DNA of 64,000 bases, taken from positions 1,620,021-1,684,020 of the forward strand of contig NZ_CP016614.1 in NCBI RefSeq assembly GCF_013377255.1, read 5' to 3'. Made by a program: the position numbers and the translations under genes. Source of the stretch: Mannheimia granulomatis. Lineage in GTDB: Bacteria > Pseudomonadota > Gammaproteobacteria > Enterobacterales > Pasteurellaceae. Position 1 is the first letter of the stretch; each line of letters starts with the position of its first letter. The notes under the pieces are model-generated. The model searched no databases and was not told the DNA's origin. It saw nothing but the letters and a program-made list of their open reading frames with translations. Below, piece by piece: positions 1,887 to 63,254 of the stretch.

Positions 1887-3686
1887 ATGAACACCACCGC
1901 AATTTCTGTTTTAAATAATGTTTTTGGCTACCAAAAATTCCGAGACGGGCAAGAAGAAGTCATTAATGCCGTTTTAGAAAAGCGCGATTGCTTAGTCATT
2001 ATGACGACCGGTGGTGGAAAATCTCTTTGCTATCAAGTGCCTGCCCTTTGCTTGGAAGGCATCACCCTTGTGATCTCACCACTGATTTCGTTAATGAAAG
2101 ATCAGGTTGATCAGCTCATTACTAACGGTATTGAAGCCGCTTATCTCAATTCAACCCAAAGCATTGAAGAGCAGCAGCAAGTCGAGCAAAAAGCTTTATC
2201 CGGACAATTAAAACTCCTTTATCTTTCACCAGAAAAAGTAATGACTCAAGGCTTCTTCCAATTTATTTCACTATGTAAAATCAGTTTTATTGCGGTAGAT
2301 GAAGCTCATTGTGTTTCCCAATGGGGACATGATTTCCGCCCGGAATATACCTTACTTGGTAGATTACGTAATACCTTTCCAAATGTACCGTTAATGGCCT
2401 TAACTGCCACGGCAGATCCTACAACTCGAGCAGACATTCTGCATCATTTACGCTTACAGCAGCCACATATTTATTTAGGCAGTTTTGACCGCCCTAATAT
2501 TCGCTATACAGTGCAAGAAAAATTCAAACCGTTAGAACAGCTAGTCCAGTTTATCCATAAACAGCAAGGTAAAAGCGGCATTATTTACTGTAATAGTCGT
2601 AAAAAAGTAGAAGAAATTACCGAGAAACTCTCTGCACGCAAAATTAGTGTTATGGGTTATCACGCTGGTATGAGTTTTGAACAACGTGAAGTAGTACAAA
2701 ATGCCTTTCAGCGGGATAATATCCAAATTGTAGTGGCAACCATTGCCTTTGGAATGGGAATTAATAAATCAAATGTTCGTTTTGTAGTGCACTTTGACTT
2801 ACCTCGCTCAATTGAATCTTACTATCAAGAAACAGGGCGAGCAGGACGAGATGATTTACCCTCAGAAGCCGTTCTTTTCTACGATCCAACTGATTATGCT
2901 TGGTTACAAAAAATACTACTGGAAGAACCGGAAAGCGAGCAACGTAATATTAAACAGCATAAACTACAAGCCATAGGAGCATTTGCTGAATCACAAACCT
3001 GTCGCAGATTAGTGCTACTTAACTATTTCGGTGAACACAAGCAAGAAGCTTGTAAAAACTGCGATATCTGTTTAGACCCTCCACAGAAATATGATGGCTT
3101 ACTCGATGCACAAAAAGTCATGTCTGTAATCTATCGTACAGGTCAAATTTTTGGCCAACACCATGTAATTGCTGTATTGCGGGGTATGAATAATCTTAAA
3201 ATTCGTGAACATAATCACGATACCCTATCCGTTTACGGTATCGGCAAAGAACAAAGCCAAAATTACTGGTTGAATGTGATTCGACAACTCATTCACTTAG
3301 GACTAATTTATCAAAATATTGCTAATCACTCTGCGCTACAACTTACAGAAAGTGCCAGAGCTTTTTTACGCGGAGAGAAACCTCTACAACTGGCATTACC
3401 ACGTTTAGGTATTTCAGCTACGGCATTCGTTCAGAAACAAACCAGCCAACGTTATGATAAAGATCTCTTTGCTCGGTTACGCTTCCTGCGTAAACAAATT
3501 GCAGATAAAGAAAATATTCCACCTTATATTGTTTTCAATGATGCGACTTTACAAGAAATGGCAGAATTTTTGCCGACAAGTAAAATAGAAATGTTAGAAA
3601 TAAACGGTGTAGGGGAAAGGAAATTTGAGCGTTTTGGCGAAGCTTTTATGACCTTAATCAAAGAACATCAAAATAACCGAAAATAG
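1887..3686 (+). CDS. recQ: ATP-dependent DNA helicase RecQ
   Basis: 599 aa with Walker [15 protein letters not shown] box, zinc-binding C4 cluster and C-terminal HRDC domain. Confidence 0.93.
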
Positions 3687-7987: not shown

Positions 7988-10444
7988 TTACGCCTCTTTC
8001 TGAGTTTTTTTCTCAACTTCAATTTGCTCTGTTTTTTCCACTTCAAGTTTTACCATAGAACCTTGAATAGTTTGTTGAACTTCAATTGAAATTAAGCTAC
8101 ATAGCAAACTTTCCGTTTCTTTAACTTTTTCAACAACCAAATTATCTGAAGCATCGAAATATCCTTGCTCTTTTAAGCTTGCACTAAAGGTTGAGAAAAT
8201 TGCTTTATCAAAGAATTCCGGTGCGTTAATGCCGTGTAATACGGATAAACGCTGAGCAATCGAACTACTCTCTTTTTCCAAAGCACCTCGGCTGATTCCC
8301 GGCTGCTCGAGTAACACACTCAAGCTGATATAGTAGCGTTGTAAAATCTCACGCACGCCCGCAGAGTGCAGTTGTAGTGTACGGATATGCGGACGGCTAA
8401 TCATCAACATATCGCTTTCGTTTTTAATTACACCTTGGCGAACAAATTCTGCAATAATAGCTTCAATATGCTTGCTGACTTCCTCTTGTTTAAAATGTAG
8501 GAATAATTCAGCTTGTAAGAACGGATAAATTCGGTTTACTGCTTGAATTACCAAATCTTTTGAAATCGCTTCGTGGTGTAACACCATACTTGCCACTAAA
8601 GCCGGCAATACAAACAGATGCTGAACATTGTTACGATAATAAGTCATCAGTACGGCTGATTCTCTATCTAAACGAATCAACTCACCAAAACTATCTTTTT
8701 CAATGCAAACGCCTGAACGAGGCAATTGGATAACATGATTTAACATATCTTCCACAGACTCTTCGGGTAAAGTAACCTCTTTTGAATAAGGCACATTTCT
8801 AAATAACTGAACATAACTTTCCAGCTGTTCAATTACCTGCTCACGAGATAACGCACGCTGACGGGACGCTAATAAAGCAGAACCGACCAAGTTTTTCGCA
8901 TTTACCGCTGCCGCCTTATTAATATTGACCATCACTTGGTTTGCGATGTTATCTACAGCCTCATTTAACCATTTAGGACGATTATCCTCCGATGACTCTT
9001 TCCACTCAGGGAAATGTTGATTAAGGTAATTATTTACTTGAATCGGCTCACCAAAATTAACATAACCCTGCCCTAAATTTTTCAGTTTTTTAATCACACG
9101 CAACACCAAACCCGCATTCTCTTTCTCTTTGGCTGCACCGCGTAATTCTTTAGCGTAAGTATCTACTTCAAGCACATGCTCATAACCGATGTACACAGGC
9201 ACAATGCTAAGCGGACGATTTAAACCACGCTGAAGAGCCTGTAAGGTCATCGACATCATACCTGTTTTTGGTTCTAACAAACGTCCTGTACGAGAACGCC
9301 CCCCTTCGATGAAATACTCCACCGAATAACCGCGATAAAATAACTCTGCTAAATATTCACGGAAAATTGTAGAATACAGGCGATTTCCTTTAAAAGTACG
9401 ACGAATAAAGAATGCTCCCCAGCTACGGAAAATCGGACCTGCCGGCCAGAAATTCAGATTAATACCGGCAGCAATATGTGGTGGAACTAAACCTTGATGA
9501 TAAAGTAAATAAGATAAAAGCAAATAGTCCATGTGACTACGGTGACACGGCACATAAACAATCTCATGCCCTTCCAAGGCTAATTTACGTACACGATCAG
9601 CGTTTTTTACATTAATGCCTTGATATAATTTATTCCAAAGCCAACTTAACACACGATCTGCTACTCTTAAGCTCTCATGTTTTACATCTGCGGCAATTTC
9701 ATTAATAATTTTTTCAGCTTCTTTACGCGCTTTTTCCGGAGAAGATTTTTTAGCTTCTTCTGCAATGGCGGCTTGAATCACCTCAGAATTAAGGATTTTA
9801 TTAAACATTGCCTCACGATTAGGCAAACGAGGTCCCATTGCAGAATAACGTAATTTAGCAAAGTGAATTTTAGCTACCCTTGCCACTTTTTGAGCAATTT
9901 TTTCATCCGCTCCATGCTCGGTAACCATATAACGCAAAGATACCGCCTGAGAAAAACGGACAAAATTATCACGCCCCGACCAAATCATTGAAATAAAGCG
10001 TTGGAATGAGGTTAAAACCTGTAAATAGCGAGCATCTTCTTTACCCGGAGCTCGCCCCCATAACACAGAGACAGGCACTATTTGCACATCTAACTCTTGA
10101 TTTTCACGATGTAAATCTAAATAACGATAAAAAAGCGATTCTGTTTCGCTTTTTGCCCCCTTTGATTTAAAGAAACGGCGACCTTCGTCTAAAAAGACAA
10201 AACGGGGTAAAGTCTGACCATCAATCATATTATCTTGCAATGGATCGGGTAAATTTAATGCCAAACAGTTTTTTTGTAAAATCAATAAATCGGTTTGTGA
10301 GGTATATGGCAACACATAGACAATAGGTTGCTCAAGGTTGAGTGCCAATTCTCTTATAGGATCATTAGGAATAGCACGAGACTTCACTAAAAGTGAAAGA
10401 GGTAAATTTAATAGGGTTCGATAACAATTTAATAAGCCAGACAT
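7988..10444 (-). CDS. plsB: Glycerol-3-phosphate 1-O-acyltransferase PlsB
   Basis: 818 aa, colinear with E. coli PlsB, with the [12 protein letters not shown] acyltransferase motif. Confidence 0.92.
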
Positions 10445-31286: not shown

Positions 31287-32725
31287 TACTCTTTTTCTGA
31301 CGGCTTACCTTGAGAATGACCTAAAAGCTTCTCAATTAATGCCTTGCCTAATTCAGACTGATTTAAGCCCTCTAAGGTTGCAGCAATTTTTGTACCGCCT
31401 GTTGAACTAAAAAGCTCACCTACCCGCTGAATCCCTTTATCTACACGTGCATCATTAATGATAAATTTCATATCAGAATGTGAAAGTGCTTTGGCTTGCT
31501 CAATACCAATAGCTTGATTCGCTTCAATTTGGCGAATACTGACCAGATATTGTTGATAGCCCTCATTTCCACCAATTTCTCTTGCCAGCTCAATCTGCCC
31601 CGATACTAAAGAGATTTCCAATTTTTGTTTAGCTTCAGCTTCAGCCGAACCAATTTTAGCAATACCTTGAGCCTCTTTATCTTTAGTTTCCAATAAAGCT
31701 TCTGCCTCCAAAAATGCTTTTTGTTTTTCCCCTTCAGCCACCAAAATTTGGTGTTGTTTCTCGGCTTCTGAATTAATAATTAACGCATTTCGATTTGCTT
31801 CTGCTTTAATTTCTTGAGTGCGTTTATCTTGATCCGCTTTCACAATTTCTACATCTTTAGCAATTTCAGCTTGCTTTACTTCCGCAACCCGTTTTACCTC
31901 CATTTCACGCTCTTTGGTGATTTTTTCTTGCTGTTTCACCAACTGTTGAGCTTGCTCATTAGAAACCGCCACCTCACGCTGATTTTCAACGGTTTTTAAG
32001 CCTACTTCTTTTTCTGCTTCTTGACGTTTTACATCCGCCTCTTTCTTCGCTTCAATTTCGGCAATCTGTGCTTCTTTTTGGTTACGAGCCACTTCAACAC
32101 GGCTCTCTTTTTCAATAAAGGATTTTTTAATTTCCATAATATTGAAAATTACTTTAGAACCACCGCTATCCCGAATATCCATCAGCTCAATGTTTTTCAC
32201 CGGCTCAATCCCCCAATTTTTCAACTGTTCTTTGACGGCAGCAGTAAAATCATCACCCAATTCAGAACGCACCTGCAAAATATCATTTAGATTACGGCTA
32301 GATAAAATAGAACGCACCGAGCCTTGAATAATATCAACCAGTTGGATATTCATATCGTGAAAATCCGAAACACGCTGCGCAGCTAAATTGCTATCTGCCA
32401 CACGGAAAAACGCGGTAATATCCACCACAAAAGGTAAACGCTCTAAATCATAGGCTTCATAGTTATCAATTTTAATCGAGAACACCGAGACCGGTAGCAC
32501 GATCGTACTGACCCCAATCAGCGGCAACCAAGAAGGAAACGCATAATAAACATTACCATTGCCGGTATCTTTACCGTAAGATATCGTCTTACCTCCCGAT
32601 TGCACGATGTGTACTTCATTGGTCTTTACGACCCGGCGGAATAGCAATGCAATAAAAAGCGATATAGCAATAACTATAACGATTCCAATAATTGCAACCA
32701 ATATGTAAAAGTCCATAACATTCAC
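31286..32725 (-). CDS. SPFH/band-7 flotillin-family protein (YqiK-like)
   Basis: N-terminal TM segment, SPFH domain, then a long Glu/Lys/Ala-rich coiled coil. Confidence 0.8.
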   Translation of the reverse strand: MNVMDFYILVAIIGIVIVIAISLFIALLFRRVVKTNEVHIVQSGGKTISYGKDTGNGNVYYAFPSWLPLIGVSTIVLPVSVFSIKIDNYEAYDLERLPFVVDITAFFRVADSNLAAQRVSDFHDMNIQLVDIIQGSVRSILSSRNLNDILQVRSELGDDFTAAVKEQLKNWGIEPVKNIELMDIRDSGGSKVIFNIMEIKKSFIEKESRVEVARNQKEAQIAEIEAKKEADVKRQEAEKEVGLKTVENQREVAVSNEQAQQLVKQQEKITKEREMEVKRVAEVKQAEIAKDVEIVKADQDKRTQEIKAEANRNALIINSEAEKQHQILVAEGEKQKAFLEAEALLETKDKEAQGIAKIGSAEAEAKQKLEISLVSGQIELAREIGGNEGYQQYLVSIRQIEANQAIGIEQAKALSHSDMKFIINDARVDKGIQRVGELFSSTGGTKIAATLEGLNQSELGKALIEKLLGHSQGKPSEKE

Positions 32726-54868: not shown

Positions 54869-57800
54869 TTAAGATAAAAATCCGCCAATCCCTTTAAACT
54901 TCTCTACAAAAGCCACGATTTTCTGAAAAACCGTCTGTTTTTTAGTCTTATATTGTGGATTTAACGGGCTCATTTTAGGTAGAAGATCATTTAAATCTGT
55001 CCCATTTTCGCTAGCATATTCTCGTTTGAGAGAGGTCATTATATACCGTTTTGCTGCATCTATATTTAAACTTTCGCTATCAATTAAGCTATCCGCTTCT
55101 CTTTTTTGCTCTTGCTGAGCAAAGCGGAAAAATTCATCAATGATAGTTGCTTTATCAGGAATTTTATCTAAATCGGTTTGATGGATAAAATCAACAACCA
55201 GACTTTCTTTTGCTCGATTATCAATGCTCGCACGAATTGTTCGGCGAATTTCTTCAATCAATGCTGGTTTGTTTTTGAGTTTCTTATTATGTTCAAAGAT
55301 CAACTCTAAAATATAATCTAAATTGATCTCTTGGGATTTTAATAGATCGACTTCAAAAACGACATCGCTCCAATCAATTTGAGATTTTTCCGCATTGCCG
55401 TTTTGAGTTTGTTTCCTTTTCCATTCACGAACATCGTTATAGGCAGAACGATAATCTTGTAGCTGCCTATCAGATAAAATCACATTATTGTTCGGAAGAT
55501 ATAGGCCTTCAGGCTCTTTCAATGCATTGTCTGGATATGTGGTGTTTTTTAATACGTAAAATTCATCGTAATTATGCAACACATTTTCCAAACGCAGATA
55601 CTCGCTAAATAGTTTGGTAAAGGCTTTTTTATCTTCCTCGGTGTCAAGCTGAGTCGGATCTGGGAATGTCATTTGTAGTGCCTTAACAACCTCTCGATAA
55701 CCTCGATGATAATTTCCATTAGTATCTTGATAACCGTCCATATATTCTTTGAAACTACGCTCTAATACGATATTTCGAGTATTTGTATTCCCAAACAAAG
55801 TAATGGCATCTATCGTATCTTGCTCTAAATTACGGAAAGTGACAATATTCCCGAATGGCTTTGTTGCATCATAAATACGGTTTGTACGGGAAAAGGCTTG
55901 TATTAAACCGTGATAACGTAGATTTTTATCCACAAATAACGTATTCAGTTTAGGGGCATCGAAACCGGTTAAAAACATGCCGACTACAATCAATAAATCC
56001 ACTTCTTGATTTTTAACTCTCATCGCCAAATCACGGTAGTAATTTTGGAATTCTTTGCTTTCTACTCCATAATTGGTTTTAAATAACTGATTGTAATCAT
56101 TGATTGCCGATGTCAAAAATTCTTTTGCTGAGCTATTCATTGCCGTTGGCTCAAAGGTTTCATCAACAATTTCACCTATCGCATTTTGTTCTTCATTGGC
56201 GGCAAACGAGAAAATCGTTGCAATTTTTAACGGATTTTGTACCGCTTGTTGTTGAATTTTGAACTGCTCGTAATAGGCTTTTGCCGCATCAACGGAACTT
56301 ACCGCAAACATTGCATTAAAGCCTTTGCCGGTGGTATTTAAGCGGTGTGTTTTTTGATTAAAATGGGTCAAAATATATTGGGTAATTTCCTCAATCCTTT
56401 TGGGGTGCAATAAGGCTTCTTTGGTTTCAAGTGCGGTCAGTTTTTCCGGATTTTTTTCTGTTTCAATATCTTGGAATTTCGGGCGAACATTATTGTAATC
56501 TACCTTAAATTTCAGCACTTTTTCATCACGAATTGCATCGGTAATCACATAGGAATGTAATTGTGAACCAAATACAGTTGCTGTTGTTTCCGCCCCTAAT
56601 GCATTATCGGCAAAAATCGGCGTACCAGTAAATCCAAACTGGCAGAATTTTTTAAACTTTTTCTTTAAATTCTTTTGGGCCTCGCCAAATTGAGATCGAT
56701 GACACTCATCAAAAATAAAGACGACCGGTTGAGAATAAATTGCCAAATCATTTTCAGATTTCATTAAATTATTGAGTTTCTGAATTGTGGTGACAATAAT
56801 TTTATTGTCATCTTTTTCAAGATTACGTTTTAAACCTAATGTACTTTCCGAACCATTTACACTATCAGGGGAAAAACGTTGATACTCTTTCATTGTTTGG
56901 TAATCCAGATCTTTTCTATCTACTACGAAGAACACTTTATCTATAAAATCCAATTCGGTGGCAAGACGTGCCGCTTTAAAGCTGGTGAGCGTTTTACCTG
57001 AACCTGTGGTATGCCAAATATAACCTCCGCTTTCTAAGTTTCCCCAATTTTTAGTTAAATGGGTATTTTGGATTTTCCATAAAATCCGCTCGGTTGCCGC
57101 AATTTGATACGGGCGCATAATCAATAATGTGTTGCTTACATCAAAAACCGAATAATTGATCAACACATTAAGTAGAGTATTTTTTTGGAAAAACGTAGCA
57201 GTGAAATCTTTTAAATCCTTAATCAGCGTATTATCTGATTTTGCCCAGTTCATCGTAAAATCAAAACTGTTTTTATCTCGCTTAGTGGTGTTGGCAAAAT
57301 AACGGGTATCTGTGCCGTTAGAAATAACAAAAACTTGCAGAAATTTAAACAGTGAATTTTCTGAATTGAAACTCTCTTTGCTATAACGATGAATTTGGTT
57401 AAAGGCTTCTCGAATGGCTACGCCACGCTTTTTCAACTCAATTTGGACTAACGGCAAGCCATTCACAAGAATAGTCACATCATAGCGATTAAGATATTCA
57501 CCTTTTTGTTCAAATTGATTGATAACTTGCACTTTATTACGAGCAATCTCTTTTTTATCTAACAAATAGATATTTTGAATCCGCCCATTATCAAACACAA
57601 AATCATAGATATGATCTTGATGAATTTTTCGGGTTTTCTCGATAATACTTTCTGAGGATTTATCGAGATATTCATCAACAAAACGTTTCCATTCCGAATC
57701 TAAAAAACGCACATTATTTAATTTTTCCAACTGCTCACGCACATTCATTAGCAATTTTTCTTGGCTATTTAAATCAGGGCGATATTCATAACCTTGAAAC

Positions 57801-57931
57801 TGCAAATCGGCGATCAGCTCTTGCTCTAAATCGGCTTCGGTTTGATAAGAACTTGGCTTCTCGATTGTTTCATATTTATCTAAAACGATGAAATTATTGG
57901 TTTCTGTGATGGGAGTTGTTTCAAGGTTCAT
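54869..57931 (-). CDS. hsdR: Type I restriction enzyme R subunit HsdR (type IC, EcoR124/EcoprrI-like)
   Basis: 1020 aa with SF2 helicase motifs ([28 protein letters not shown]) and an N-terminal nuclease domain. As I recall it, the sequence is close to EcoR124I-type HsdR. Confidence 0.9.
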
Positions 57932-59030: not shown

Positions 59031-60317
59031 TTATTTAGGAAAATCCAACAACTGCTCCCGATAATACTCATACTGTTTCCGTCTTAACGCAATTTCTTTC
59101 GGTAATCCTTCGCTGATAGAATTAGTCAAGCGATCGAATTTATCTAAAATTTTGACAATTTTTTGTTGTTCTGTTAATGAAGGAACAGGAATCTCATATT
59201 TCAAAAAATTATTTGAATTAAGGCGAATGACTTTTGTTCCTTGTGCATATTTTTCTTTATATTTTGCAAAACGTTCTGTTTGCAATAAATAGGTAAGATA
59301 TTTTGTTTCTAAATCATTATTAGGTCTAAATGCAAACATATCACCTGAAAAAACTATTTCATCGCCTAACCAACCTAATGGTTTCATTACATCTTCAATG
59401 TTTTCACTTGTCCCCGCAATTAACACATCGCCTTTTCTGGCTTTTTTGAGTTTTTTGGCTAATTCAACAGAAACAAAAGACTTCGTTTTATCTGCAAAAG
59501 TACTATAATAAGTATAAATCTGCCCATAATGAATTGCAGGTACTCCACTTTCAGTAAAATCTTTTTTCTGTAATCCATTTCCACGAATTAACTCACCAAC
59601 TTCCCCCAAAGCCTTAAACACCACTTGACCACTGTGGTACAAGGCTTTGGTGATGTCATTATACCCCCCCCTATCTAAATCTTGCGGGAATGTCAATAGG
59701 GTTTCTCGGTAATATTGATATTGTTTTTTCCGCAGTGCTAATTCAGCTTCCAGCGTAGCTTCCAGCTCAGTGAATTTGTCAAGTGTTTTTACAATTTTTT
59801 CTTGGGTTGAGAGTGGGGGGATTGGGATTATTATTTTAGCTAATTCCTTCATTGGAACACTTTTAACCGTACCTCCAGCAGATTTACTTAAAAAATCTTT
59901 TCTAATGAAATCTATTTCAAAAAGATATAAAAGGAATTTAGGCAAAATTATATTCTTCTTTGGTTTTATGGCATAAACTCCTTCTTTGATATTCCAATTC
60001 CTAGGTTCTTTGTCAATCAGTGCTACATTTCCAATAGTCCCTGTTCCAGAAAATAAAATATCTCCAATTTCTAAATTAGAACGGTTATTACATAATTTCA
60101 ACGCTTCATCATTTAATTTATCAGTTTTATCAGTAAAAATGATTTTATGATTTTGTAATTCTCTAATTGTTACATAGTAATTAGTTGCATCAGGTGTATT
60201 TAATGTAAAAAATTGTCTTGGATTTAAACCTGTTTTTATCGAATGACAAACTTCCCCCAAAGGCTTCCACTCAACCTCAGCCCCATTTAATAATTTCTCA
60301 ATAATTTGATTACTCAT
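59031..60317 (-). CDS. hsdS: Type I restriction-modification specificity subunit HsdS (two target-recognition domains, type IC-like)
   Basis: Two variable target-recognition domains separated and followed by the conserved repeats ELALRKKQYQYYRETLLTFP and EIALRRKQYEYYREQLLDFP. Confidence 0.9.
   Translation of the reverse strand: MSNQIIEKLLNGAEVEWKPLGEVCHSIKTGLNPRQFFTLNTPDATNYYVTIRELQNHKIIFTDKTDKLNDEALKLCNNRSNLEIGDILFSGTGTIGNVALIDKEPRNWNIKEGVYAIKPKKNIILPKFLLYLFEIDFIRKDFLSKSAGGTVKSVPMKELAKIIIPIPPLSTQEKIVKTLDKFTELEATLEAELALRKKQYQYYRETLLTFPQDLDRGGYNDITKALYHSGQVVFKALGEVGELIRGNGLQKKDFTESGVPAIHYGQIYTYYSTFADKTKSFVSVELAKKLKKARKGDVLIAGTSENIEDVMKPLGWLGDEIVFSGDMFAFRPNNDLETKYLTYLLQTERFAKYKEKYAQGTKVIRLNSNNFLKYEIPVPSLTEQQKIVKILDKFDRLTNSISEGLPKEIALRRKQYEYYREQLLDFPK
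59664..59671 (-). repeat. G8 homopolymer in hsdS (C8 on the + strand), codons R-G-G of the DLDRGGYND segment at the start of the second target-recognition domain
   Basis: Read directly: ATACCCCCCCCTATC. Confidence 0.9.
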
Positions 60318-60320
60318 TTT

Positions 60321-60390
60321 GCAAATTTTCCTGATTTTTATACCGCTTGTTTTAGATTGTGGCGAATGTAATTCACCCCTACGATGATAA
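60321..60390. repeat. Direct repeat copy B (hsdS leader), about 70 bp, containing a USS core and a short hairpin
   Basis: GCAAATTTTCCTGATTTTTATACCGCTTGTTTTAGATTGTGGCGAATGTAATTCACCCCTACGATGATAA is about 85% identical to copy A. Confidence 0.8.
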
Positions 60391-60480
60391 CCTTTGATAA
60401 AATTTCAACCGTTTTTCAAGTCTTGACAATTTAAATTATTGACCTTTTGATCCATTTCAGTATAATGACCCCCAATAACT

Positions 60481-60530
60481 CCCCTAGCTTTGCCAACCCA
60501 CGAGGTTGGAACTACAAGGTTGGGGGCTTT
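60481..60530. repeat. GC-rich nested inverted repeat downstream of abi
   Basis: CCCCTAGC...CCAACCCACGAGGTTGG...GGTTGGGGG. Confidence 0.5.
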
Positions 60531-60534
60531 CTTT

Positions 60535-61446
60535 TTAGGCTTTCTGCCATAATTTCCACTGACTCAAATCTGTCACAATACCCATTTGTTGTAAATTAAT
60601 CGCATCATTTTCAACATTGGGAAATTCTTCCAAAAGTGCCAAAAATCTTGCTCCCCAAGTTGAATTTGGGCAAATCACATCTAACATACGCTTCATTAAA
60701 CAAAAATAGACAAAAGGCTGAGCAACATTAAGCTGTTTCCATTGTGCATCTTGTAAGCCTTTCAGATTTGCTTTGAAAATAATCGGCTTATTCCACAAGC
60801 GGCTATGATGAGCGGAGACATTTCGGATAAAATTAAAAGCGTGCAAATGCGTTTGTAAATGTTTCCCGTCTTTTAAGTGATAAATTTTGGCAATGCGGTC
60901 TTTATCTTTCGATAACATTCCCTTGTAAAGCATCGACATTGTGCCGAAATCCCATACTTCGCTGGCTGCCCAAATCGGTAAATCGCCATAATGTTCTAAA
61001 TGATGCTTAACAAAACTACTTTCTGATTCTCTATTGATTAGATTTTGATATTTATCTAACCATTTTTGATGTTCAAAGTGCGGTTCAAAATACTGTGATT
61101 TTTGATGAACTAATGGTTCATATTTACCTAATTCATAGGCAATACTCACTCTTAAAGCAATTTCAATACGTTCTAAAGCATCAAGTGCTAACTGTCTGAG
61201 CTTTTTGTCAAAAATATACAATGCTTTTACATCTTCAAAACGGCTATTAGGAATAAACTGATCTAGCCGATTTTTAGGATTGCCTGGATCTATTTGTCGA
61301 AAAGAATACAGATACCCACTTAGCCGATAATAACCAAGACTTTTCAAGTAGCCTAAAGCTTTCTTTTCGTCATTAATCAATAGCCCTCTTTCTTGTAAAA
61401 GATCGAGTTGTTCATTAAAACTTTTCCAAAGTTTCTGCTGCTTCAT
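60535..61446 (-). CDS. Abi_2-family abortive infection protein (AbiD/AbiF-like)
   Basis: N-terminal ...SFNEQLDLLQERGLLINDEKKALGYLKSLGYYRLSGYLYSF and the RNVSAHHSRLWN motif, both characteristic of Pfam Abi_2. Start set at MKQQKLW (ATG); the ORF track begins at an upstream TTG. Confidence 0.65.
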   Translation of the reverse strand: MKQQKLWKSFNEQLDLLQERGLLINDEKKALGYLKSLGYYRLSGYLYSFRQIDPGNPKNRLDQFIPNSRFEDVKALYIFDKKLRQLALDALERIEIALRVSIAYELGKYEPLVHQKSQYFEPHFEHQKWLDKYQNLINRESESSFVKHHLEHYGDLPIWAASEVWDFGTMSMLYKGMLSKDKDRIAKIYHLKDGKHLQTHLHAFNFIRNVSAHHSRLWNKPIIFKANLKGLQDAQWKQLNVAQPFVYFCLMKRMLDVICPNSTWGARFLALLEEFPNVENDAINLQQMGIVTDLSQWKLWQKA

Positions 61447-61460
61447 ATTTATAATTATTT

Positions 61461-61535
61461 GCAAATTTTTCTGATTTTTATACCGCTTGTTTTTATGTCT
61501 TAGGGCGAATATGATTCGCTGCTACGATGATAATC
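61461..61535. repeat. Direct repeat copy A (upstream of abi), about 75 bp, with a USS core and a GCGAAT/ATTCGC hairpin
   Basis: GCAAATTTTTCTGATTTTTATACCGCTTGTTTTTATGTCTTAGGGCGAATATGATTCGCTGCTACGATGATAATCC. Confidence 0.8.
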
Positions 61536-61595
61536 CTGATTTTGGGAATATTTATCTATTTTTGTAGGGGCGGATTATATCCGCCCTCTAATCAT

Positions 61596-63143
61596 TTATC
61601 CGTTTTCAATCTCCGCCACTATTTCATCAATTTCCCTCCGCAAGCGGTCAATTTTTGCCACCGTTTCACTAATTTCGGCATTGAGTTCAGTAATGTTAAT
61701 CACTTCTCGGGTATCTTTTTGTTCGACATAAGAGCTTACCGCAAGATTGTACTCATTATCCGCAATTTTGCGATTATCGACTGATTTTGCTAAATGATCC
61801 ACATCGGCTTTATCAGAAAAAAGTTGGAGAATTTCAGCAATATGCTCATCGGTTAGTACATTATTGTTGGTTTCTTTCTTAAACAGTTCGCTTGCATCAA
61901 TAAACTGGGTTTTTGTATCAGTTTTATGCTTGGAAAGCACTAAAATATTCGTTGCAATACTTGTGCCAAAGAAAAGATTTGGCGGTAGTGCAATTACGGT
62001 TTCTACAACATTTTGCTCAATGAGATATTGACGAATTTTTTGCTCTGCACCGCTACGATAGAAAATACCGGGGAAAGTGACAATCGCAGCACGCCCTTTT
62101 GCTGAAAGATAATTTAAGGCGTGCAGAATAAAGGCAAAATCGGCTTTGGATTTCGGTGCGAGAATACCCGCCGGTGCAAAACGCTCATCATTAATTAATG
62201 TTGGGTCATCAGAACCAATCCATTTAATCGAATAAGGCGGATTAGATACAATCGCATCAAAAGGTTTATCATCTTTTAATTTTGGGTTGATCAGCGTATC
62301 GCCCAATTCAATATGGAATTTGTCATAATTGATATTATGCAAAAACATATTCATACGAGCGAGGTTGTAGGTGGTATGATTGATCTCTTGCCCAAAGAAG
62401 CCTTCTTCAATCACGTGATCATCAAATTGTTTTTTCGCTTGTAGTAATAACGAGCCAGAACCACAAGCCGGATCATAAATTTTATTAACAGTAGTTTGTC
62501 CATATAAAGCTAGTTGTGCAATCAATTTAGACACATTTTGCGGAGTGAAAAACTCTCCACCAGATTTACCAGCATTTGCTGCATAGTTTGAAATCAGAAA
62601 CTCATAAGCATCACCAAACAAATCAATTTGATTATCTTCAAAACGACCAAAATCGAGTTCCGCTACGCCTTTTAATACCGCAGCAAGACGTTTACTTTTT
62701 TCACTGACACTACTGCCCAATTTACTTGATCTTGTATCAAAATCAGCAAATAAGCCTTTAATATCTTGTTCCGATGGATAACCTACAGCAGAACTTTCAA
62801 TAGCCTCAAAAATCTCAGCCAATTCAGTATTGAGTGCCTGATTTTGGTGTGCAGTTTTTGCTACATTTTTAAATAACTGACTTGGATAAATAAAATAGCC
62901 TTTGGTTTTAATCGCATCTTCTTTAATGCCAAATGCATCAATTTCTTCATCGGAATAGGTAGAATAATCAACACTTTCATCACCGTTAGCGATATATTCT
63001 GCAAAATTTTCACTAATAAATCGGTAAAACAATGTGCCTAATACATATTGCTTAAAATCCCAACCATCTACCGCTCCACGAACTTCGTTTGCAATTCGCC
63101 AGATTTGACGCTGGAGTTCTGCTCTTTGTTGAATAGTTGCCAT
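61596..63143 (-). CDS. hsdM: Type I restriction-modification methyltransferase subunit HsdM (N6-adenine, type IC-like)
   Basis: NPPYSIKW motif IV, AdoMet motif ([11 protein letters not shown]), N-terminal HsdM_N domain; 515 aa. Confidence 0.92.
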
Positions 63144-63174: not shown

Positions 63175-63245
63175 AGCGGTCGAATTTCCCCAAATTTTTG
63201 CACATTGTTTATTTGCAAAATTCTCTGAAAAAACGACCGCTTGTT
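63175..63245. repeat. Inverted USS pair between gyrA and hsdM
   Basis: AAGCGGTCGAA ... ACGACCGCTTGTT. Confidence 0.8.
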
Positions 63246-63254
63246 TGAGTGAGA

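Follow-up and report, generated by a model that had tools for sequence, protein, structure and literature searches.

Proteins of the AbiF family are HEPN RNase toxins neutralised by a small non-coding RNA (ncRNA) that is encoded upstream, and these pairs are classified as type III toxin-antitoxin systems (PMC12373285; PMC12737573; PMC13064643); the Abi family has been reported to be widespread across Pseudomonadota (PMC12373285). In this work we describe an abi gene of this family located in a type I restriction-modification (R-M) operon of Mannheimia granulomatis, within a stretch of 64,000 nucleotides of contig NZ_CP016614.1 (positions 1,620,021 to 1,684,020; hereafter the window). We propose, with a probability of roughly 0.6, that abi is the toxin half of a self-contained two-gene module of the AbiF type (type III-like), acting in toxin-antitoxin and abortive infection fashion, that was inserted as a cassette of approx. 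1.1 kb in the hsdM-hsdS spacer of a type IC prr locus (hsdM-hsdS-prrC-hsdR); a small RNA (sRNA) gene convergent with abi probably encodes its RNA antitoxin. To our knowledge, characterisation of AbiF RNAs has so far been limited to those of Firmicutes and Bacteroidota, which carry the abiF motif and are encoded upstream. The homologue of known structure, PbAbiF (8VZ6), is reportedly a HEPN RNase that forms dimers and in which the bound ncRNA blocks the active site, and AbiF-ncRNA pairs are currently regarded as the ancestors of Cas13-crRNA.

The genomic context of this gene is not new by itself. Table 1 of the survey by Anantharaman et al. 2013 lists Abi2/AbiF/AbiD HEPN genes as 'embedded in R-M operons', and the survey also describes PrrC as 'often found in R-M operon' (PMC3710099). 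The occurrence of abi within hsd operons has been documented and is already known, and the novelty that a first-pass annotation of this DNA had implied for it is weak, since the pattern was tabulated in 2013. What is added here to the known pattern is the conserved convergent sRNA, which makes this a variant of the AbiF kind of toxin-antitoxin system.

The Abi protein and a predicted convergent small RNA

The intact open reading frame (ORF) of abi covers positions 60535–61464 of the minus strand and starts at a TTG codon (309 residues). The ATG at 61446, which yields a protein of 303 residues, is the likely start because the closest homologues are 303 residues long and begin with MKQQK; the limits 60535–61446 given in the first-pass annotation match this start and this length. 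That annotation had proposed an Abi_2-family (AbiD/AbiF-like) protein, to be abandoned if no significant Abi_2 hit was obtained. The family assignment was borne out by hidden Markov models, by a profile search of solved structures and by the predicted fold. The protein matches Pfam Abi_2 (PF07751) with an E value of 7e-54 and 183 bits (cut-off 25.6) along profile positions 2–184 of 184, and the PADLOC AbiD model with an E value of 5e-65 and 217.9 bits. A profile built from 23 homologous sequences, used with hmmsearch against the proteins of the PDB, gave one match, chain A of 8VZ6 ('Abi family protein', PbAbiF), with an E value of 1.2e-50 and residues 7–303 aligned to 8–299. Likewise, when the AlphaFold2 model (pLDDT 92.6) was compared using Foldseek, chain A of 8VZ6 was retrieved with TM scores of 0.85/0.87 and an E value of 8.8e-17, and no other PDB chain appeared at E ≤ 0.001.

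The HEPN signature R-x4-6-H (R-phi-xxx-H), which in this superfamily belongs to the last helix of a four-helix core, is present as R208-N-V-S-A-H213, placed in helix 194–212 of the model; R208, N209 and H213 are invariant in the 23 homologues, and R208 and H213 align with the RNxxxH motif of PbAbiF, whose R210A+H215A double mutant was reported to be inactive (PMC12373285). The peptide RNVSAHHSRLWN corresponds to residues 208–219, and the two peptides quoted in the first-pass annotation are both found in the protein. The gene is intact wherever it is present, with degraded copies in two of 46 metagenomic loci (L104 and L144), which answers the concern that it could be truncated or frameshifted in most relatives. 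Judged from sequence and predicted fold, the protein is a full-length PbAbiF homologue with its R-x4-H motif intact, and the product of a genuine AbiF/Abi_2-family defence gene, for which the RNase activity and the role in defence are predicted.

A prominent feature of the locus lies on the other side of the stop codon. In every close relative abi begins 2–20 nt past the upstream gene, yet it is followed by a gap of approx. 200 nt, the first 100 nt of which (approx.) are conserved across genera, until conservation stops at a fixed point that corresponds to a -35 box. Read in the direction opposite to abi, this block shows a -35 box TTGACN, a variable spacer of 16–18 nt, a -10 box TAnnnT and, 6–8 nt past it, a conserved 5' tail (CAAUAAC, CAAUACG or CAACACG), followed by a GC-rich hairpin, long and imperfect, and by a U-run reaching or overlapping the abi stop codon. 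This small gene on the plus strand was missed in the first-pass annotation. In the window, the predicted sRNA consists of the 5' tail CAAUAACU, a helix of 12 bp, a 3' bulge of 5 nt, a CCAACC/GGUUGG hairpin, and a terminator-like U-run of which the last two U residues overlap, and are complementary to, the abi stop codon. In Haemophilus (loci L094–L098 and L001) the abi ORF runs on into the sRNA region, giving an overlap of approx. 25–30 nt with the coding sequence and a C-terminal extension (...MAPSLVNPTT) that derives from the complement of the stem.

The putative sigma-70-like promoter of the sRNA matches 11 of 12 consensus positions and is the best site in a scan of 8.9 kb. Its boxes and their spacing are kept across genera, but the spacer sequence is not; a match of at least 9/12 was found at 71% of the homologous loci versus 0.34% of random positions, the loci having been pre-filtered for a recognisable element. 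Only this conserved site is taken as meaningful, because the simple promoter/terminator scan as a whole was not enriched (33 sites versus 35.5 expected). The sRNA strand folds with a minimum free energy of -25.4 kcal/mol (z -3.4), against -18.7 (z -1.3) for the abi strand; this strand asymmetry, together with the antisense promoter, ruled out the idea that the GC-rich 3' stretch is a structure of the sense 3' untranslated region (UTR) of abi.

The conservation of the sRNA was followed in 80 species-representative genomes with abi relatives (38–68% identity, mostly 38–50%, among the matches listed). The sRNA sequences were sorted into three classes, A (19 sequences, including that of the window), B (19) and C (31). 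In class C, 98.5% of the cells of the alignment are paired, compared with 88.1% in shuffles and 33–56% in slid controls, and 8 of 13 pairs are compensatory; none of 500 shuffles reached any of these measures. The corresponding values for class A are 95.6% and 7 of 18, and in class B compensatory changes occur in 7 of 10 pairs. The ratio of G-U to A-C pairs, 29:0 in class A and 49:2 in class C, indicates that the RNA strand is the one antisense to abi, and reading the class C structure on the abi strand lowers its pairing to 86.4%, from 98.5%. Covariation in these alignments supports the predicted fold of the sRNA.

Covariance models of the three classes were run on the window and the 80 loci (1.18 Mb). 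At E<1e-3 they detected the sRNA in 36 + 2 + 39 = 77 of the 80 loci, every one beside abi, so that a conserved structured ncRNA adjacent to the toxin gene, a defining trait of the AbiF type III systems, is found in 77/80 genomes. The sole hit away from abi was a weak palindromic match in L066 (E approx. 0.04); in the three loci that gave no significant hit, divergent copies are visible by eye. About 10 of the loci had been missed by an element finder based on regular expressions and were later recovered by these models. The window sRNA is matched by model R2 with 86.6 bits (E 1e-18), a result obtained by construction because the window is among the 19 source sequences of R2. Model R1, of class C, did not find the class A sRNA when run on the window; its only hit, at 32095–32128 (+) (16.4 bits, E 0.11), consisting of CAACACGG, a hairpin and a U-run, lies inside an ORF of 479 residues on the other strand and was rejected as a chance match.

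Metagenomes were also scanned for nothing but the class A RNA pattern. Of the 46 loci obtained, 45 have an adjacent, convergent abi ORF. At the remaining locus (L104:139-203 (+) and approx. 60 nt more), an intact sRNA stands beside a remnant of abi with an internal deletion that joins the first 13 codons (MKQQKIWKSFQEQ) directly to the last few; here the toxin was lost and the RNA was kept. Deletion of the toxin with retention of the RNA is frequent in decaying toxin-antitoxin loci. In 80 of 81 cases, the sRNA belonged to the same class as the one accompanying the nearest protein neighbour; as far as these sequence comparisons go, the sRNA class tracks the clade of the Abi protein. Two loci carry more than one class B copy: in L010 these are in tandem (8948–8998 and 9181–9223), and in L024 an identical second sRNA (1072–1115 and 3122–3165) is located 2 kb away, possibly accompanied by a second abi paralogue.

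No credible match to Rfam 15 was obtained on either strand in scans of 10 kb and 1.3 kb of the window, or with examples of classes B and C. In particular, neither the window nor the class B and C examples gave a hit to the abiF motif (RF03085) at E ≤ 10, whereas the phiC2 positive control scored 37.6 bits. The interior of class B (GC-CUCU ... UAC-GC) resembles the abiF motif (AGC-CUCUCA ... GCU-CAAAUC), a likeness that the Rfam model does not detect. A 2026 review places the AbiF ncRNAs only 'upstream' (PMC13064643), and literature searches on AbiFr, on convergent or antisense Abi RNAs and on the hsd/abi locus of H. influenzae returned nothing relevant, with the limit that the 2025 paper on the AbiF structure was outside their coverage and may hold this RNA.

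The hsd operon and the probable arrival of the cassette

The region from 52 to 64 kb of the window includes, all on the minus strand, the 3' end of gyrA, hsdM, abi, hsdS, a prrC homologue of 364 residues, hsdR, uup, tcdA and ppnN (Table 1). The first-pass annotation had correctly located abi inside a type I R-M operon, and the PrrC-like gene that it mentioned was confirmed by the PADLOC model. The EcoR124_C domain of HsdR indicates that the restriction system is type IC.

Table 1. Location of the abi cassette and of the genes and sites that surround it in the window
Feature	Position	Strand	Evidence or remarks
abi (AbiF/Abi_2-family HEPN RNase, predicted toxin)	60535..61446	-	303 aa; R208-N-V-S-A-H213
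Convergent sRNA, class A, approx. 64 nt (predicted RNA antitoxin)	60473..60536	+	Covariance model R2; fold; class A covariation
Sigma-70-like promoter of the sRNA (predicted)	60439..60466	+	-35 TTGACC 60439-60444, 16-nt spacer, -10 TATAAT 60461-60466; faces abi 3' end
Direct repeat copy 1 (hsdM-hsdS spacer sequence with ACAAGCGGT uptake-signal-like motif), just upstream of abi	61458..61533		Repeat families D1 (97%), D5 (83%); empty-site alignment
Direct repeat copy 2, just upstream of hsdS	60318..60390		Repeat families; M. haemolytica empty-site alignment
hsdM, type I methyltransferase subunit	61596..63143	-	TIGR00497 1.3e-200; N6_Mtase 7e-119
hsdS, specificity subunit	59031..60317	-	Methylase_S 2.4e-44, two target-recognition domains
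prrC homologue (ABC-ATPase-like N domain + anticodon-nuclease C domain), 364 aa	57921..59015	-	PADLOC PrrC 1.8e-140; AAA_13
hsdR, type IC restriction subunit, 11-nt overlap with prrC	54869..57931	-	HSDR_N, SWI2_SNF2, T1R_D3-like, EcoR124_C; TIGR00348 2e-203

The PrrC homologue has the ABC-ATPase-like N-terminal domain, and its sequence retains the R-x3-E...H triad as R289, E293 and H324, the counterpart of which in EcoPrrC is R320/E324/H356 (PMC1484252). It occupies the slot between hsdS and hsdR in a type IC operon, exactly where EcoprrI places prrC (the features by which PrrC was recognised here follow PMC1484252), and the representative of its protein cluster carries the name 'anticodon nuclease'. 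By analogy with EcoprrI, it would be PrrC and not Abi that is coupled to the restriction complex. Among all the loci examined, abi and a prrC homologue occur together only in the window and in A. minor.

The syntenic locus of M. haemolytica (gyrA-hsdM-hsdS-prrC-hsdR-uup) has a PrrC that is 94% identical, a hsdM-hsdS spacer of 117 nt, and no abi. Compared with this empty site, a direct repeat of the spacer of approx. 76 nt brackets an insertion of approx. 1.14 kb that comprises abi and the sRNA. The motif ACAAGCGGT in the flanking repeat is presumably an uptake signal of the Apl type. A longer form of approx. 36 nt (TTTGCAAA...ACCGCTTGT) occurs four times in 10 kb (56217–56252, 60318–60353, 61458–61493 and 63212–63247), and two of these copies flank the abi cassette; the four-copy motif is consistent with an extended DNA uptake signal of that type. 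Most likely, abi and the sRNA entered the hsdM-hsdS spacer as a cassette of approx. 1.1 kb, which M. haemolytica lacks at the same site; abi is a strain- or species-variable insertion.

Other observations were made around this operon. Right after the hsdM stop codon (61567–61590, minus strand) there is a GC-rich hairpin, GGGCGGATATAATCCGCCC, with no T-run behind it, and the 161-nt spacer between hsdM and abi folds with a z of -3.0. Beside ppnN, at approx. 50666 and below on the minus strand, a gene with DUF2813, AAA_15 and OLD-like TOPRIM similarity was detected (L081:20781-20912); a gene for the same OLD-family nuclease borders the hsd/abi locus of A. minor (L082:115-1671), and it is a further candidate defence gene close to the hsd locus. 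In one strain of M. haemolytica (L155:5763-6985) hsdS is split into two ORFs of 227 and 195 residues, and it is intact (407 residues) in others; this may reflect a frameshift or phase variation of the specificity subunit.

The distribution of the cassette goes well beyond this operon. In A. minor the order is hsdM-abi-hsdS-prrC-like-hsdR; a metagenomic relative with 81% identity shows hsdR(EcoEI type)-hsdS-abi-hsdM; H. influenzae has hsdM-...-hsdS-abi-hsdR, and in Moraxella and Psychrobacter abi occupies other hsd slots. Outside R-M systems, the arrangement is nrdA-abi-nrdB in N. meningitidis and tex-abi in Paralysiella, and in a metagenomic relative with 69% identity (P0024) abi follows a gene for a MetW-family methyltransferase. 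The proteins encoded at these varied hsd positions and in the nrdA-nrdB, tex and metW operons are 68–83% identical to that of the window. Within R-M loci the slots M-abi-S, S-abi-R and S-abi-M were found, in type I families with EcoR124_C, EcoEI_R_C and HindI-like subunits. In N. meningitidis (L089–L093, abi at 8073–8981) an abi of 68% identity and its sRNA lie between the ribonucleotide reductase genes, an arrangement present on many contigs (281 index blocks), and abi relatives were found on 155 plasmids. The type I loci L147 (Moraxella nasovis) and L151 contain RhuM, Fic, DUF3990 and DUF3791 besides abi between the hsd subunits, and these crowded loci illustrate hsd operons as landing pads for toxin-like genes.

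Proposed mode of action and alternatives

In the minus-strand promoter/terminator scan no promoter-like or terminator-like site was present between hsdM and abi, from which co-transcription of both genes is inferred. We suggest that abi, devoid of its own promoter, would be expressed by read-through from hsdM, and elsewhere from the gene located 2–80 nt upstream, while the sRNA would be made in excess from its own promoter, bind the AbiF dimer and silence the RNase. When a phage shuts off host transcription or degrades the labile RNA, free AbiF would cleave cellular RNA and bring about growth arrest; this trigger, the loss of a labile RNA upon transcription shut-off induced by the phage, is taken by analogy from type III systems. 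The Abi module would then act independently of the Hsd complex, as a third layer beside DNA restriction and PrrC, with PrrC guarding the restriction enzyme if the E. coli precedent applies.

Two loci, one of them from Pseudorhodoferax (L035) and the other from a further genome (L070), are informative on how the RNA could act. In L035 (7926–7971, +) and L070 (7916–7961, +) the sRNA is upstream of abi (which starts near 8001) and on the same strand. It carries its own promoter, with a -10 box, and a terminator located 10–25 nt ahead of the start codon; the convergent copy downstream is missing. This is the published layout of AbiF/RCd22 (PMC12373285; PMC13064643).

Several points weigh against the proposed pairing of toxin and antitoxin. 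The traits that define the known AbiF antitoxins, an abiF motif RF03085 in an upstream 5' leader, were not found, the sRNA being downstream and convergent except in L035 and L070; because it fails RF03085, homology with a known antitoxin RNA is unproven. The toxicity, RNA binding and anti-phage action of this abi clade are predicted, as are the promoter, the transcript ends and the sRNA itself, all of them read from DNA sequence. In addition, the convergent layout also suits an antisense or a transcription-interference mechanism.

This last explanation, in which the sRNA would work in cis as in type I systems, pairing with the 3' end of a read-through abi transcript or causing transcriptional collision, and so lowering abi mRNA and perhaps hsdS expression with no binding to the protein, is considered unlikely, but it is the strongest of the alternatives. 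In about 75 of 80 loci the sRNA is convergent, with a U-run that touches or overlaps the abi stop codon. For abi itself, the scan predicted no intrinsic terminator in sense orientation, and an abi transcript continuing towards hsdS would be fully complementary to the sRNA; in the window, where the overlap with the coding sequence is of 2 nt, full complementarity exists only with such a read-through 3' UTR. Nevertheless, there is no complementarity in L035 and L070, where the sRNA is upstream in the sense orientation, and unpaired nucleotides are conserved (the tail CAAYACG/CAAUAAC, the loops CUCU and UAC, and the bulges) that a pure cis-antisense RNA would not need; moreover, the solved homologue binds its own RNA directly. 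Protein binding of the type III kind is therefore favoured over pure antisense action, since L035 and L070 lack complementarity and the class of the RNA follows the clade of the protein, although both mechanisms could coexist. Pairing in trans with the translation-initiation region of abi was not supported, the duplex energy being -28.0 for cognate and -27.9 for non-cognate pairs.

The first-pass annotation had asked whether Abi monitors the R-M complex, and the answer is mostly negative. According to such a model, which we regard as improbable, Abi would be kept latent by the Hsd complex in the way PrrC is, and freed when phage anti-restriction proteins attack that complex. The association that prompts it is strong: by tblastn, Hsd genes are within 8 kb of abi in at least 34 of the 80 loci; of 76 loci, 19 have hsdS and 6 have hsdR directly upstream (25/76 together); directly downstream, hsdR is found in 13 of 75; and abi is on the same strand as its upstream neighbour in 61 of 76, with a median gap of 53 nt. 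It is nonetheless an enrichment and not a dependency. Since the same cassette sits in nrdA-nrdB, tex and metW operons, abi is considered independent of the restriction complex; in the 80-genome set it also follows gyrB, aminoacyl-tRNA synthetase, nrdD and polA genes. Besides, its slot varies among R-M loci and type I families, it has an RNA partner of its own, and M. haemolytica has the same hsd/prrC locus without abi. A still more remote explanation is that the 3' element acts as DNA or is merely structural, either as an attC-like recombination site at the end of a cassette or as a bidirectional terminator, with no RNA gene involved. It is an imperfect inverted repeat that ends a promoterless, co-oriented cassette found at different loci, in keeping with that explanation; but the -35 and -10 boxes are conserved at a fixed distance and the spacer between them is not, the U-run is present on a single strand, and in L035 and L070 the element has the opposite orientation with respect to abi. 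In attC sites the paired core sites R''/R' (RYYYAAC...GTTRRRY) close the hairpin, and an integron integrase is encoded nearby. Here, the conserved CAAYACG (CGTRTTG) is unpaired and outside the stem, and none of the genes listed for the loci that were retrieved by protein look-up is an integrase; on these two grounds the identity of the element as an integron attC was discarded.

Thus, the reading that we prefer for the locus, a toxin-antitoxin pair of AbiF and sRNA, depicts three stacked defences (restriction, PrrC and AbiF-sRNA) rather than an Abi that depends on the R-M system. A wider proposal can be put forward only tentatively, and we lean somewhat against it: that a large proteobacterial AbiF clade, including members in H. 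influenzae, N. meningitidis, Pseudomonas and Xanthomonas plasmids, uses an uncatalogued family of antitoxin sRNAs with three co-evolving structural classes, mostly convergent at the 3' end of the toxin gene and with their own promoter. The unit would be a promoterless 'operon-riding' cassette placed behind host genes (hsd, nrd, gyrB and others), which may spread in competent hosts by homologous exchange between flanking uptake signals, and the terminator hairpin would be at the same time the antitoxin and a shaper of read-through into the downstream gene. The candidate RNA family is backed by covariation, has a different gene layout, and extends to hundreds of proteobacterial species that include major pathogens. 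If this is true, a second RNA family would extend what is known about the pairing of HEPN toxins with RNAs, and genome annotators would gain a missing ncRNA model; the sRNA would also explain how abi genes are carried silently within essential or defence operons.

Comparison with known systems

The closest described systems are PbAbiF-AbiFr (8VZ6; Zilberzwige-Tal et al. 2025) and AbiFCd-RCd22 from the C. difficile phages phi027/phiC2 (PMC12373285), with which the pair described here shares the family, the fold and the R-N-x3-H HEPN motif, as well as a small structured RNA beside the gene, closed by a GC-rich stem and with unpaired nucleotides that are conserved. The identity to PbAbiF is 27% at the protein level, and the sRNA differs in failing RF03085. 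Two of the 80 genomes have the RNA ahead of abi, in sense orientation and with a terminator, as in RCd22; in contrast, in approx. 95% of the loci it is downstream, convergent, and provided with its own promoter instead of being part of a 5' leader. RCd22 has two abiF motifs and the RNA here is a single unit, with its function predicted from sequence. The founders of Pfam Abi_2, the lactococcal plasmid proteins AbiD, AbiD1 and AbiF, have the same domain and HEPN RNase, and the lactococcal genes are tolerated only with nearby non-coding sequence (PMC13064643). Unlike these, the abi gene of M. granulomatis is hosted by a Gram-negative chromosome, in an hsd operon, and has its RNA on the other side and on the other strand.

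Regarding gene layout, a comparison can also be made with txpA/RatA of B. subtilis, a type I toxin-antitoxin system with a convergent antisense RNA that overlaps the 3' end; in systems of this kind the toxin is a small membrane peptide and the RNA works through base-pairing. Both have a convergent small RNA that runs up to the 3' end of the toxin gene, but here the overlap with the coding sequence is of 2 nt and the RNA also exists in a non-overlapping layout. The gene neighbourhood of abi agrees with the Table 1 entries of Anantharaman et al. 2013 (PMC3710099); the passages of that survey retrieved by term search give protein neighbourhoods only and do not mention an RNA partner. Finally, PrrC-EcoprrI is alike in that the gene of a HEPN-type RNase lies inside a type IC hsd operon as a second line of defence, and in the window a true prrC homologue is two genes downstream of abi. 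The difference between them concerns the partner: PrrC, an ABC-ATPase fusion, is kept silent by the Hsd proteins, whereas Abi has no NTPase domain, is found outside R-M loci too, and would be held in check by an RNA.

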